A stretch of DNA of 64,000 bases, from positions 2,746-66,745 of the IMG/VR virus record IMGVR_UViG_3300020577_005397; one strand, written 5' to 3'. Every line of letters begins with the position of its first letter. The stretch's first letter is position 1. A program made the translations under genes and the position numbers. Below are positions 20,644-24,775 of this stretch, one piece after another. The DNA comes from a virus. Its lineage: Duplodnaviria; Caudoviricetes. The notes below the pieces were generated by a model, which saw only the letters and a program-made list of their open reading frames with translations, was not told where the DNA came from and did not search any database.

Positions 20644-20964
20644 ATGACTACCCAAGAGCAACCTTTCTGCCTGATGTACTTCGACCGTTCACTTGGACCC
20701 GAATCGGGTCGGCATGTCTTCTGCCTTCAGCGAGGAACCCAGTGGCTGGAGGACGGCCCCGACGAGAAAGTCCCCGAGCGCCTGTACGAGCTGTTTTTCT
20801 ATACAGACAGAAAGACGGGCGAGCCCATGCTGATGTGGACCGACTGCACCAGCAGGGACGAGACGAGTGTGGGCGAGTGCCCGGCCTCCAGTGATGAGGC
20901 GTGGGAGAAGATCGACCGACTGGGCGAACTCATGCGCGAGGTGGCAAATGGACACTCTGCCTAA
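20644..20964 (+). CDS. Small early protein, leaderless
   Basis: ATG 7 nt after the -10. Confidence 0.7.
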   Translation: MTTQEQPFCLMYFDRSLGPESGRHVFCLQRGTQWLEDGPDEKVPERLYELFFYTDRKTGEPMLMWTDCTSRDETSVGECPASSDEAWEKIDRLGELMREVANGHSA

Positions 20965-21274
20965 CATCAACGCGATGCTGATGTACTATCCCGAGACGGA
21001 TCAGACTCACTTCTGTCTGCTCTTCCATTGGGAGATCTTCGATTCGGAGACTCGCAACAGCCAGCTCTACCGATCCGTGGCGATGGCCCGCTGCGACTAT
21101 GACGGTGGCTGGAAGCTGCGGGTCGTGAACCGCCTCGGCGGCATCCGCACCTACAGCACAACGGGATTTGCGGAAGCCGAGGAAGAATTTTGGCTAGTTG
21201 TTCAGGCCATCCTGAATGGACACCGGATCGTCCTCCGGGTTGGGCCGGAGTGCCAGAATGGATGGAGACCATGA
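20948..21274 (+). CDS. Small Trp-rich protein
   Basis: GAGG SD, overlaps neighbours. Confidence 0.7.
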   Translation: MDTLPNINAMLMYYPETDQTHFCLLFHWEIFDSETRNSQLYRSVAMARCDYDGGWKLRVVNRLGGIRTYSTTGFAEAEEEFWLVVQAILNGHRIVLRVGPECQNGWRP

Positions 21275-21591
21275 GCGCATTCGTCATCCGACGAGTGATG
21301 TGGACCCAGGATAAGCGCATGGCCTGCTGGGACTCGGCGCGCACAGAGAACGCTCTGGAGATCCTGGTCGATGCCCCTAACGGCAAACAAGTGTATGCCT
21401 ATGTGTTCTACGCGGGTATAGGCAAAGGGGACCACTACATCTGGACCCTCTGGACCTACTCGGGCTACCTCTTTCCGGGGTCTGCCTTCGCGGAGTGGGC
21501 ATGGGTGAAGGATCGTCCCGAGGAACTCTCAACAGCCCTGGGCTTGTGGCTGAGTTGGCTGGAGAATGAATATGCGTCTAAGTACCATTGA
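21271..21591 (+). CDS. Trp-rich paralog array member
   Basis: APNG..YAYVF..WTLWT..LSTALGLWLSW. Confidence 0.75.
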   Translation: MSAFVIRRVMWTQDKRMACWDSARTENALEILVDAPNGKQVYAYVFYAGIGKGDHYIWTLWTYSGYLFPGSAFAEWAWVKDRPEELSTALGLWLSWLENEYASKYH

Positions 21592-21886
21592 GTACGTTCA
21601 CGAGCGCCGCATTGAGAAGGTCATGTGGCTCGTGGACGTGGCTATCCCGAATCTCGAAAAGCGAACGGACTGCCTGTACATCGAGTTCACGGCCCCCGAG
21701 GGGATGACGCGCTGCTGGGTATTCCATGACGAGCGCCAATACTGCCTATGGACCGACGAAGAAGTTTACCGGCCCAGCGATGGACGGCGGATCTCGTCCT
21801 GGATTCACGAGGAGGAACCTATCGACCTATGGGATAGCCTCGTGACCTGGATGGAGCAGTATCCGAAGATCAGCGCGAGGAAATGA
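21572..21886 (+). CDS. Trp-rich paralog array member
   Basis: APEG..CWVF..YCLWTDE..LWDSLVTWME. Confidence 0.75.
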   Translation: MRLSTIEYVHERRIEKVMWLVDVAIPNLEKRTDCLYIEFTAPEGMTRCWVFHDERQYCLWTDEEVYRPSDGRRISSWIHEEEPIDLWDSLVTWMEQYPKISARK

Positions 21887-22164
21887 GCAAAGTGCCTAGC
21901 AACATATCAGCAATACTCTGGATAGAGGATATGACTATTCCCGCCGTGGAAAATCCACGAGCGGGTCTCTACGTTCGTGTGGAGACGCCTAAAGGTAATT
22001 GCCATGCCTGGGTTTTTCCGGCTCTTTCAAAACCGTATCTGTTCTGCATCTGGACAGATGAGCAGTGCCTGTACCCCCTCAATCCGATCAGTACCTGGGC
22101 TACAGTAGAAACCGAGGAAGGTCTGTCCATTGCCCTGGAAGAGTGGCTGGAGTATCTGGAATGA
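21883..22164 (+). CDS. Trp-rich paralog array member
   Basis: TPKG..AWVF..FCIWTDE..LSIALEEWLE. Confidence 0.75.
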   Translation: MSKVPSNISAILWIEDMTIPAVENPRAGLYVRVETPKGNCHAWVFPALSKPYLFCIWTDEQCLYPLNPISTWATVETEEGLSIALEEWLEYLE

Positions 22165-22436
22165 TTCTTCAAGTCGAGTGGCGCGAGAAGGAACGCATTC
22201 CTACAGTCGGATACCGATGCTACGATTGCGTCTACGTGGTCGCCCAGGGTCCTCATGTTCCCAAGGCCGAGGCGTGGATCTTCGATGACGGGGATGGAGA
22301 GGGGAACTGCCCTCTCTCCCTGTTCGTGAGGGATTCACGCGACCCTTCGCAGGCGTACTACTGGAACATCGGGGATACCTGGGAACAGATCGTGGTGAGC
22401 CTCACGATTTGGTTGAAGATCATCGAGGAGATGTGA
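22161..22436 (+). CDS. Trp-rich paralog array member
   Basis: AEAWIF..IVVSLTIWLK. Confidence 0.7.
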   Translation: MILQVEWREKERIPTVGYRCYDCVYVVAQGPHVPKAEAWIFDDGDGEGNCPLSLFVRDSRDPSQAYYWNIGDTWEQIVVSLTIWLKIIEEM

Positions 22437-22437
22437 C

Positions 22438-22764
22438 ATGGGGCATTACCAACTGCACCAGCTCGAATGGGTTCCCCCAGACCAGGGAGGACTCTTTTTC
22501 ACCACAACCAAGGGAGAATGGTTCCTGGCGATGCTCTTCACAACGCCGGACAGAATCGCTCCAGGACGCTGGATGATCGTGGAGCAGATTCACAATGGGG
22601 GATTTGTCGTGAGCTGCCAACCCGTAGGAAGGGGAAATTCATTCTCGTACATGATGGGAAACCCCCTATACTACAAGAGCGCAGACGGAGTGATGGGGTG
22701 GATCGAGAACACCCTGGACGAGTACGACAGGTGGATCGAGAAAGCCGGGAGGGTTGATTCATGA
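22438..22764 (+). CDS. Small Trp-rich protein in the array
   Basis: GAGGAG SD, coupled. Confidence 0.7.
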   Translation: MGHYQLHQLEWVPPDQGGLFFTTTKGEWFLAMLFTTPDRIAPGRWMIVEQIHNGGFVVSCQPVGRGNSFSYMMGNPLYYKSADGVMGWIENTLDEYDRWIEKAGRVDS

Positions 22765-23015
22765 GCCTCGTTAACATCAGCTACGAAACCGAACGGTGGA
22801 TTCCGGGCTACTCAACGACTAAGAAGGACTGTGTAGACACCCTGGTGTTTGCCGTGAAGAATGGCAAAGGTTTCGCAAGGGCCTTTATCTTCGAGTTTGA
22901 GGGCGGGTGGATGCTGTGGATCAACTCCGAGGGAGGTCAAGGTGCCCTGGAGTATAACAAGGACTTGCGGCGGGTTGAGCGAGGTCTGATCCGTTGGCTC
23001 GAAGACCCGTTTTGA
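22761..23015 (+). CDS. Trp-rich paralog array member
   Basis: ARAFIF..GGWMLWI..VERGLIRWLE. Confidence 0.7.
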   Translation: MSLVNISYETERWIPGYSTTKKDCVDTLVFAVKNGKGFARAFIFEFEGGWMLWINSEGGQGALEYNKDLRRVERGLIRWLEDPF

Positions 23016-23024
23016 GGAGGGACT

Positions 23025-23315
23025 GTGAAACTAATGGCGGTAACTTACGAGACAAACAAGTCCCTGTGGGGGTATGATGCCTTCTACTTCGTGAGAGCCA
23101 AGAAGGAAACCCGCCACAAGGAACTGCTGTGCTTTGAAATCAGCGAAGAGGCAGGGGTTAGGAAGTTTGCGTGGCTCCTTTACCACAACGGGGGATGGCT
23201 TCTATGGGGACAGATTCCGCACAGGAATTGGTGTGGGCCTTTAGACTGGAGATCCACCGTAGATGCTTTGGAGCCCTGTCTGAGTGCGTTTATCTCCCTG
23301 CCTAGTCTACCCTGA
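23025..23315 (+). CDS. Trp-rich paralog array member
   Basis: GAGGAGG SD; KFAWLL..GGWLLWG; ISYET/VTYET start shared with the previous gene. Confidence 0.7.
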   Translation: MKLMAVTYETNKSLWGYDAFYFVRAKKETRHKELLCFEISEEAGVRKFAWLLYHNGGWLLWGQIPHRNWCGPLDWRSTVDALEPCLSAFISLPSLP

Positions 23316-23318
23316 GCC

Positions 23319-23362
23319 CCAGACACATTACTCCCTATGCAACTAGAGAGTAATGTGTCTGG
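23319..23362. terminator. Perfect 15-bp hairpin
   Basis: CCAGACACATTACTC/GAGTAATGTGTCTGG where the paralog operon meets the RNA 3' end. Confidence 0.6.
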
Positions 23363-23722
23363 AATCCTACTCTACCCTCGTCACTTAGCTCTTAGGCGTG
23401 ACGACGCCTTCCAGATCGAGTAGACGCAATGCCTCTAAGGCAAACTGAATCTACACGCACACAGGGGCTACGGGTCAACCCCACAACGTCAGGCTGAGGC
23501 TCCTCACCTCAACTGCCCAGGTCCGGCTTTACCAGCGAGGGTTGTACGCTCTCGCGTACCTAACTCACCTGACGTGTCTCCTCGATCCGAAGATCGACCG
23601 GGACGGTTATGCCTCTCCTGGCACTCGTCTGGGACACTACACCGTATATGCCACTGGCCGCATCTGGGAAGCCCAGATGTTGGGCTTCCTTATTGGGGCT
23701 GTTCAAACAGGGGAAAAGACAT
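23319..23722 (-). ncRNA. Candidate ~400-nt structured non-coding RNA
   Basis: Own promoter; C(UUCG)G and GAGA-tetraloop 6-bp hairpins; 8-bp long-range ACGTCAGG/CCTGACGT; terminal 15-bp hairpin; no credible ORF. Confidence 0.65.
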
Positions 23723-23728
23723 GTCATA

Positions 23729-23802
23729 AGCATAGCACACTTTTTAGGCTTGTCAAGGGTTTGTAGAAAGTCCTTGACAAACTTTGCAGAATGCTGTATA
23801 GT
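23729..23802. promoter_or_regulatory. Divergent sigma70-like promoter pair (ncRNA leftward, replication operon rightward)
   Basis: Minus TTGACA-16-TATGCT (23756-23729); plus TTGACA-17-TATAGT (23774-23802). Confidence 0.8.
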
Positions 23803-23859
23803 GTTCTGTACAACGTTAGTCCGGGGGATTTTCCCCGGCAACTCGAAAGGCAACGGAAG

Positions 23860-24561
23860 ATGGCATACGAATACTTCAACAGTTTGGCTGACTTGTCGGT
23901 GGTCGAAAAGGACGGCAAGACCCTGTACTCCTGGACGGTCATCAACAAACCTCGCGCCGGGGAGAAGAACGGACCCAAGGCCGACCCGCGTGCGGGCCAG
24001 AGCTTCGTGGCCGAGGTGAACCTGCCCGTCAAGCCCACGGCGGGAACGTGGAAGGTGAACTTCAGCATCAACACCGAGACCGGGGTCTACGAGGCCCGCG
24101 AGCTGACGCCGACCAACGTCCGCGCCAAGATTCGCTTCCTGGGTCTGCCGGATGTCGAGCGTGCGTTGGGCAAGGGCGAGAAGCCGGTGGCCCTGCGTGA
24201 GCCGAAGGTGGCCGAGATGGGCCGCTACATCATCGCCAAGATCGAGCTGGACAGCGGCCCGTGGGCTGGCCTGACGGCGACCTGCTTCCTCAACGCTGAG
24301 CCGATCCATCTGAGCACGTCGAACAAGGGCAAGTTCACCAGAGACTTTCTGCGCTACGGCCTGGGCCTGCCTGCGACCGCCGACATTGTGAAGCATCTGG
24401 CGGAGCTGCGTGGCATCGACGGCGAGAACGGAGTCGAGTGGGTCAAGGTTCACGAGATGTTGCTCCAGCACGGCAAGCGCGTTCAGGAGGGCTCGGCCAA
24501 GTCGGTCCGCGTCCTCATCAACGGCGTCGGCGCGGTGAGCGAGATCTACACCGAGGACTGA
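23860..24561 (+). CDS. First gene of the replication operon, possibly ssDNA-binding
   Basis: GAAAGG SD, strong codon bias, beta-rich; function inferred from position only. Confidence 0.6.
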   Translation: MAYEYFNSLADLSVVEKDGKTLYSWTVINKPRAGEKNGPKADPRAGQSFVAEVNLPVKPTAGTWKVNFSINTETGVYEARELTPTNVRAKIRFLGLPDVERALGKGEKPVALREPKVAEMGRYIIAKIELDSGPWAGLTATCFLNAEPIHLSTSNKGKFTRDFLRYGLGLPATADIVKHLAELRGIDGENGVEWVKVHEMLLQHGKRVQEGSAKSVRVLINGVGAVSEIYTED

Positions 24562-24562
24562 C

Positions 24563-24775
24563 ATGGCGAAGAAACCCGCTCCCAAGCTGACACATGTGTG
24601 GAAGGTGACGTACAAGGTTGGCTGGATGCAGCAGGGCGAGGAGACGGTGGATCTCGTCGCCTATGACGTTCCAGAGCTGCTGGAACGTTGGAAAAAGCAC
24701 GTCGCCCGCTCTCTCAAATACACCCCCTCGCCCGTCATCGTCAAGCTGGAGCGGGGCCAAGAGGTGTACGCATGA
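24563..24775 (+). CDS. Small hypothetical protein
   Basis: GAGGA SD, coupled. Confidence 0.7.
   Translation: MAKKPAPKLTHVWKVTYKVGWMQQGEETVDLVAYDVPELLERWKKHVARSLKYTPSPVIVKLERGQEVYA

Follow-up and report, generated by a model that had tools for sequence, protein, structure and literature searches.

We found that a 64,000-nucleotide stretch of phage DNA (hereafter, the window) contains a locus that is predicted to be the gene for a stand-alone folded non-coding RNA of ~415 nt. The RNA is read from the minus strand, and its central part is treated here, from its sequence and conserved pairing, as a divergent homolog of the EGFOA family (Rfam RF02955), with a score below the curated threshold of that family. 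We consider it quite probable that this is an autonomous RNA gene having a divergent EGFOA core, whose product would act in trans by virtue of its fold. The source record of 66,745 bp, of which the window covers most, has direct terminal repeats and is rated complete.

The locus lies in a 545-nt gene-free gap between a plus-strand gene ending at 23315, which is the final member of an array of small genes, and the plus-strand gene starting at 23860. The latter opens the replication operon, whose products are, in order, a 233-aa protein, a primase-like protein, a helicase resembling DnaB and a DNA polymerase of family A. The zinc-ribbon match of the primase-like protein is weak and below the cut-off. 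The 233-aa product gave no match in Pfam and PHROGs and no usable match in the Protein Atlas. Two promoter-like sites were found in 900 nt, against 0.3 expected by chance. The minus-strand site, predicted to be of the sigma-70 type, is directed away from the replication operon and toward the structured region. Its −35 hexamer is invariant across the five lineages sharing this slot, while the −10 hexamer reads TATGCT or TAGGAT. The locus is delimited by the following features.

23774-23802, plus strand: predicted operon promoter TTGACA-17-TATAGT from the motif scan, back-to-back with the RNA promoter
23729-23756, minus strand: predicted RNA promoter TTGACA-16-TATGCT with a TG extended −10, matching 10 of 12 consensus positions
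23309-23722, minus strand: predicted transcript of ~415 nt, its ends placed from the promoter and the conservation pattern

The 5′ end of the transcript was set ~7 nt after the −10 box and the 3′ end where the conservation among the relatives stops, past a 20-pair hairpin. The first ~12 nt are variable (with a 9-nt deletion in the relatives L198/L199), and the conserved structured part begins near 23705. Its overlap with genes is limited to the last ~7 bases of the convergent upstream gene, and hence practically no coding sequence lies antisense to it. The RNA gene is present in a single copy in the phage genome. Its parts, listed from the 5′ to the 3′ side of the RNA, are as follows.

23667-23689, minus strand: 5′ hairpin Pa, GGAAGCCCA / UGGGCUUCC, 9 pairs, running straight into CCCAGA at 23669-23664
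23486-23640, minus strand: EGFOA-like core of 155 nt, from Rfam RF02955, model R1 and the reciprocal model R2
23610-23623, minus strand: linker hairpin UGCC-loop-GGCA between CCCAGA and CCGUCC, an insertion relative to the Rfam model; both sides changed in 3 of 4 pairs
23598-23606, minus strand: CCGUCC and CGG, containing the 5′ strand of the pseudoknot
23582-23597, minus strand: P1 hairpin UCGAUC-UUCG-GAUCGA; both sides changed in 5 of 6 pairs (in L198, L210 or L207)
23486-23575, minus strand: P2, 8 pairs, ACGUCAGG (23575-23568) / CCUGACGU (23493-23486), closing the core; both sides changed in 5 of 8 pairs, 100% of cells paired
23537-23566, minus strand: P3, base GAG/CUC and top GUACGC-GAGA-GCGUAC; both sides changed in 5 of 6 top pairs
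23512-23536, minus strand: P4 GCUG/CAGU with the signature loop GGUAAAGCCGGACCUGGG (23533-23516); covariation in the family
23495-23511, minus strand: P4a UGAGG-UGAGGAG-CCUCA, between P4 and the 3′ strand of P2; both sides changed in 3 of 5 pairs
23464-23482, minus strand: P5 GGGG-loop-CCCC, the loop containing ACCCGUAG; read by eye
23421-23453, minus strand: P6 UAGAUUCA/UGCGUCUA with inner UGCCU-UAG-AGGCA; both sides changed in 6 of 7 outer pairs
23376-23406, minus strand: P7 CGUCGUCAC / GUGACGAGG with the conserved loop GCCUAAG-GCUAA; both sides changed in 4 of 8 pairs
23317-23364, minus strand: terminal hairpin P8, 20 pairs including U-G; both sides changed in 6 of 20 pairs, 95.8% of cells paired

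The order within the core is CCCAGA, the linker hairpin, CCGUCC, the pseudoknot strand, P1, and then P2 enclosing P3, P4 and P4a. CCCAGA occurs twice: the copy at 23634-23629 is aligned by both the Rfam and the R1 models, and the other (23669-23664) follows the hairpin. Pa is near-invariant in the five close lineages, with a one-sided change of A-U to G-U in L210 as the sole difference, and therefore it is uninformative for covariation. P3, whose top hairpin lies at 23559-23544, is larger than in the Rfam model. The pseudoknot joins 23604-23598 to CCGGAC at 23526-23521 in the P4 loop, and this loop is invariant in the clade save for two pseudoknot letters in L207. For P5, the variants GGGG/CCCC, AGGG/CCCU, UAGGG/CCCUA and GAGC/GCUC were read by eye, the computed count being blurred by a one-column shift in the alignment. 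In P6, the pairing is poorer in the inner stem (76% of cells paired), and a weak closing helix of 4 pairs shows no covariation. P8 directly adjoins the convergent plus-strand gene at its stop codon (23313-23315) and has no U tract after it; a sequence scan of the RNA region found no canonical or U-tract terminator. P8 likely marks the end of, or stabilises, transcripts coming from either side.

Most of these elements had been picked out in an earlier sequence-only reading. The minus-strand promoter TTGACA-16-TATGCT is indeed present at 23756-23729, with a TG, and the two hairpins UCGAUC-UUCG-GAUCGA and GUACGC-GAGA-GCGUAC were recovered at 23597-23582 and 23559-23544. The helix described as enclosing ~75 nt is ACGUCAGG/CCUGACGU, which encloses 74 nt; CGTCAC/GTGACG lies within 23406-23376, and GTAGA/TCTAC with its inner TGCCT/AGGCA at 23453-23421. 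The terminal hairpin held up while its length did not, as it has 20 pairs including U-G (23364-23317) and not 15. We dropped the proposed pairing of ACGGT with ACCGT: ACCGU overlaps the CCGUCC pseudoknot strand, and RNAalifold pairs UACGG with CCGUA at 23472-23468.

Next, we consider the strand and the structure. The fold is more stable than shuffled sequences on both strands (z = −5.6 for the minus and −6.2 for the plus strand); hence the energy shows structure and cannot pick the strand. The minus strand is settled by the UUCG and GAGA loops, by 47 G-U cells in the alignment of the relatives that become A-C mismatches if read on the other strand, and by the covariance-model matches (Rfam and R1), which occur on the minus strand only. 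The earlier reading had likewise placed the tetraloops on this strand.

Covariation was counted on the EGFOA-style structure, pseudoknot included. Among the close relatives, 97% of the cells are paired over 99 pairs in 15 helices, and 21 pairs have double changes, compared with 11.6 ± 2.2 in shuffled alignments (0 of 500 reached 21) and 0–3 in slid controls. Upon addition of L210 and L207, 91% of the cells were paired and the double changes rose to 40 of the 99 pairs, as against 14.6 ± 2.8 in shuffles (0 of 500) and 8–13 in slid controls; the sample comprises six lineages, five of them close. In L207, the pseudoknot reads UGG/CCA in place of the CGG/CCG of the window, a compensatory change from C-G to U-A (pair 291:377). 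The search for homologs and covariation that had been proposed along with the first reading thus yielded both: related phages retain the stand-alone structured RNA of ~400 nt, which has its own promoter opposite the replication operon, and its pairs covary.

On the strand of the RNA, a frame of 57 aa opens within the −10 box; as its ends vary among the relatives and L207 lacks it, we rejected it as coding. A coding reading is ruled out since the indels are 1–9 nt long and no frame is common with L207. Metatranscriptome contigs from three runs cover 23759-23979 and 24125-24319 and none lies on 23309-23722, at a depth too low to weigh either way.

The relatives came from assembled metagenomic sequences. 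With the region as query, blastn found nothing among 50,697 phage records. IMG/VR gave no related loci for the two flanking proteins and 0 matches to an exact 26-nt motif of the clade. Homologs of the 233-aa and primase-like proteins were found in JGI and Logan assemblies, and seven phage contigs, syntenic or related, carry a homologous RNA. A gap of 543–572 nt is kept in seven relatives (L198/L199, L201, L202-L205, L210). The RNA region aligns at 88% mean identity, with the promoter conserved and the conservation ending directly past the last hairpin. Matches in the sequence index came from runs labelled wastewater, activated sludge, sludge and freshwater, and the DNA run X4 contains a variant that is 91–99% identical, with 59 differences in 22900-23553.

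L207 is more distant, its primase being 58% identical. Its RNA, at ~1690-2158, scores 70.3 bits with model R2 and is preceded at the matching place by TTGCAG-16-TATACT with a TG, a promoter read by eye. This RNA is on the same strand as the replication genes, that is, in the orientation opposite to that in the window, and it resides in a divergent gap beyond the small-gene block, ~1.4 kb from the 232-aa gene. As both position and strand differ, the RNA gene appears to have moved and flipped as a unit. This arrangement argues against a cis-regulation tied to the replication operon.

The small genes around the RNA were also compared. The plus-strand array (20644-23315 in the window) is upstream of the RNA, and its counterpart in L207 (2218-3475), where the genes encode 80–92 aa, is downstream, which suggests a transfer of the RNA gene between the two ends of the array. 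Within L207:1496-2217, a gene call of 166 aa, starting with the TTG at 1975, overlaps the 3′ domain of the RNA, and the ATG at 2218, past the RNA end, looks like the true start of this gene.

The relation to EGFOA was observed with Rfam and with models of our own. At gathering thresholds, Rfam gave no match in the whole window, in line with the earlier statement that signatures of RNase P, introns and tmRNA are absent. GOLLD, ROOL, OLE, RNase P, tmRNA, group I and II introns and the known ribozymes were without a match, both in the window at gathering thresholds and in 22900-24100 up to E = 10. Under permissive settings, the sole meaningful match was EGFOA (RF02955) at 23638-23485 on the minus strand, covering model positions 1–108 with 27.6 bits (E = 0.01 for the region and 1.3e-4 for the genome), whereas the gathering cut-off is 37.7 bits. 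Five other lineages gave full-length matches of 35.7, 31.5, 29.9, 28.6 and 28.1 bits to this model, with no other family at the site. All six lineages thus score under the gathering cut-off, and the clade falls outside formal Rfam membership.

The conserved letters that align are UCCCAG, ACCGUCC, GAGG after the first hairpin, and UGGUAAAGCnnGACCUGGGCA. Three insertions, namely the linker hairpin, the larger P3 and P4a, lower the score. True EGFOA members also have insertions at those three sites: a hairpin at the linker position is found in many of them, and one at the position of P4a in Bacillaceae-type loci and L104. The register of P1, then GG, then P2 enclosing P3 and P4 is present, and P1 and P2 covary in the clade as well as in the family. 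The P4 stem covaries in the EGFOA family, and the P4 loop GGUAAAGCnnGACCUGGG is present at 23533-23516; the constancy of this loop among the family loci follows from their selection, as they were retrieved by the loop motif. In 76 distinct family sequences, the letters that follow CCGUNC covary with two variable P4-loop letters: pseudoknot pair 66:186 shows 6 pair types and no unpaired cell, and pair 67:185 shows 5 types and 3 unpaired cells. The window matches this pseudoknot with CGG after CCGUCC against CCG in the P4 loop.

EGFOA loci were collected by DNA patterns, 5 from IMG/VR (38.5–78.8 bits), together with ~38 loci from genomes (Bacillaceae, Paenibacillus, Gaiellales, Thermoleophilia, Caldilineaceae and others) and ~90 from metagenomes. 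A 16-nt loop motif retrieved 55 loci from IMG/VR, and among those scanned (18 were left out) only five reached at least the EGFOA cut-off, so the motif is unspecific when used alone. From 28 EGFOA loci we built model R1, for which the structure was supplied by hand, as MAFFT and RNAalifold on the 28 cores recovered only P4. R1 matched the window core with 27.4 bits (E ~4e-4, a rough value owing to the shortened calibration), the sole match in 64 kb below E 0.1; divergent genuine members of the Bacillaceae type score 31–36 bits with this model.

The reciprocal model R2 was made from the core of this clade only (5 sequences, 36 pairs). It produced full-length matches at true EGFOA sites: 42.6 bits in L191 (E ~2e-11, equally rough), 42.1 in L104 (Neobacillus paridis), 40.0 in L139, and 33.7 and 32.5 in L092 (Peribacillus deserti). 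The 28 true members ranged from 42.6 to 20.5 bits, all above the best of six loop-motif-only controls (9.4–20.3 bits). When the RNA was compared with all the retrieved EGFOA loci by blastn and nhmmer, the loop motif alone aligned, and the motifs AGUUUGCC, CUGGAAGG and CCUAAG of the 3′ domain occur in at most 3 of 73 EGFOA loci. Since these motifs are clade-specific, only the core is demonstrably shared. Because this core carries the EGFOA motifs, helices, pseudoknot and reciprocal model matches, a new class is unsupported. The "new phage ncRNA class" envisaged in the sequence-only reading therefore gives way to a divergent form of EGFOA, in substance a known Rfam family though matched below its threshold.

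Beyond the core, a hairpin directly before CCCAGA was also seen by eye in the EGFOA loci L073 and L092, which we regard as a resemblance. Many EGFOA loci have 100–200 conserved nt on the 3′ side of the Rfam model, including a long hairpin whose 3′ strand starts with AAGGG or AGGGG. A hairpin of at least 12 pairs 3′ of the core is found in 57 of 73 loci against 23 of 73 shuffles, an excess too weak for homology with P8. A full-length alignment of 38 actinobacterial-type loci is very gappy. From their sequences, natural EGFOA RNAs look 2–3 times longer than the catalogued motif, and the latter looks like the core of these longer RNAs.

In comparison with EGFOA, the window RNA has the same order of elements (CCCAG, CCGUCC, GG after P1, loop GGUAAAGCnnGACCUGGG), the helices P1–P4, the pseudoknot joining the P4 loop to the letters that follow CCGUCC, a location in a gene-free region of unusual size, an occurrence in phage contigs, and covariance-model matches both ways (Rfam and R1 to the window, R2 to EGFOA). 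It differs in its score (27.6 vs 37.7 bits for the cut-off), in the three core insertions (linker hairpin, enlarged P3 and P4a), in the second CCCAGA after the 9-pair hairpin and the clade-specific 3′ domain of four hairpins, and in a transcript ~4 times as long as the 108-position Rfam model. According to a cryo-EM preprint (bioRxiv 10.64898/2026.07.01.735769), two EGFOA members, studied as constructs of <200 nt, formed RNA-only oligomers in vitro, either a trimer or a strand-exchanged dimer; for the discovery of the family, the preprint points to its reference 41. EGFOA is unmentioned in the main text of Weinberg et al. 2017 (PMC5737381), supplements aside.

Other large RNAs also offer a comparison. 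GOLLD and ROOL are often borne by phages or prophages. Together with OLE, they are large ornate RNAs forming RNA-only homo-oligomers (Kretsch et al., Nature 2025, PMC12286853). The window RNA is likewise large and highly structured. Unlike them, it is smaller, has an EGFOA-type core and gives no match to their Rfam families.

We weighed four other explanations. In one of them, the RNA would prime replication or activate an origin through its transcription, in the manner of ColE1 RNA II or of transcription at phage origins. The RNA does adjoin the primase-helicase-polymerase module, with divergent promoters, in the five slot-sharing lineages. However, no iterons or repeated boxes were found in 23200-23900, 23001-24000 has no marked AT-rich tract (GC 0.535), and the RNA of L207 is ~1.4 kb away from the 232-aa gene, across the small-gene block. 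Moreover, the neighbours of EGFOA in other phage contigs are capsid or portal, cell-wall hydrolase, exonuclease, helicase and Zot-like genes; as these neighbourhoods vary, the family is not tied to replication genes. We hold this explanation to be unlikely. It is quite unlikely, in our view, that the RNA is an unrelated new class that resembles EGFOA by chance or convergence. The sub-threshold Rfam scores throughout, the lack of blastn-level similarity to EGFOA loci and the peripheral domains having no sequence counterpart in the family would fit such a class. Chance or convergence would then have to account for all the near-invariant EGFOA positions, present in the right order and spacing, for the retained pseudoknot complementarity, for reciprocal matches to E ~1e-11, well over the loop-motif-only controls, and for six diverged lineages choosing the same family in the same register.

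The RNA could also be mainly a cis element, either a bidirectional terminator and insulator or a leader or antisense regulator of its neighbours, which we judge to be very improbable. The 20-pair hairpin at the stop codon of the convergent upstream gene speaks for a terminator, and the RNA of L207, being co-oriented with the genes downstream, is readable as a leader. A terminator, however, requires one hairpin and not 15 covarying helices with a pseudoknot; the antisense overlap is the ~7 bases mentioned above, the conserved promoter of the RNA is directed away from the adjoining operon, and the RNA is found in two distinct genomic settings. A self-cleaving or otherwise catalytic RNA would fit the core, which is compact and pseudoknotted and keeps many unpaired nucleotides invariant. 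Against this stand the absence of any Rfam ribozyme match up to E = 10 and the accessible part of the EGFOA preprint (bioRxiv 10.64898/2026.07.01.735769), in which cleavage is unmentioned, and we give a catalytic function hardly any chance.

We therefore return to the autonomous RNA gene with an EGFOA core. Its sigma-70-type promoter, placed back-to-back with the promoter of the replication operon, would transcribe an RNA that folds into ~15 helices, with the central 155 nt taking up a divergent EGFOA fold. Alongside P1–P4, the 3′ end of CCGUCC pairs into the P4 loop GGUAAAGCnnGACCUGGG as a pseudoknot. The core is enlarged by the linker hairpin, the bigger P3 and P4a, and flanked by the 5′ hairpin and the four-hairpin 3′ domain. 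Such an RNA would act in trans through its three-dimensional fold, unlike a cis-regulator or antisense RNA. By analogy with the two EGFOA members studied by cryo-EM, we infer a trans-acting, possibly self-assembling RNA. A bolder version, which we regard as rather doubtful, is that the natural unit is the full ~415-nt RNA and not the catalogued 108-nt piece whose structure has been solved: it might be a self-assembling particle, with the EGFOA core as an oligomerisation hub and the clade-specific arms as binding surfaces. Its own promoter would drive early synthesis, and the particle would then target the host, perhaps serving as a decoy or scaffold while defences are countered and replication proceeds.

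The family itself was already known as an orphan; what is new is a well-supported enlarged variant of it. The locus provides a well-delimited natural context for EGFOA, in which the phage genome is complete, the promoter is predicted and the 3′ end is placed from conservation. It adds six diverged lineages with strong covariation for an RNA ~4 times the length of the Rfam model. The relocation in L207 is evidence that the RNA gene moves as a module of its own among related phages. The locus reveals neither a new class nor a function. It offers a concrete full-length construct for the study of EGFOA, and the clade sequences could widen the Rfam model, which now misses this clade.

Some minor observations were also made. 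The 221-nt metatranscriptome contig at 23759-23979 begins ~50 nt upstream of the predicted plus-strand transcription start, which may reflect DNA carry-over, read-through or another start. In the relatives, a gene for a 73–76-aa Acb2/Tad1 hairpin-domain protein is located 0–1 genes after the 233-aa gene (L201:3210-3440, L202:2328-2558, L203:2137-2367, L204:3204-3434 and L210:3166-3387), with a PF24729 match of 51.9 bits in L201. Members of the Acb2/Tad1 family act as sponges for cyclic nucleotides against CBASS and Thoeris. The 70-aa frame at 24563-24775 of the window gave no PF24729 match, and judging from the sequence the window phage seems either to be without this gene or to have had it replaced.

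Among the distinct EGFOA loci, 42 of 110 share GGGGGCAG, often extended by UGCGCCUCG, at ~40–160 nt on the 3′ side of the model (for example, L073, L111 and L160). This motif is the 3′ strand of a long hairpin and is followed by a conserved tail ending in CCGGCAG. Some Bacillaceae genomes were found with 2–3 EGFOA copies within a few kb.

L101:161-235, L101:4056-4131 and L102:119-191: EGFOA copies in Niallia sp.
L092:3317-3391 and L092:4934-5008: EGFOA copies in Peribacillus deserti

Finally, L044 (10,350 bp, with terminal repeats and rated complete), like L167 and L107, carries a strong EGFOA RNA (71.3 bits) and a gene for a Zot-like assembly ATPase, which suggests that EGFOA also occurs in small filamentous-phage-like elements.
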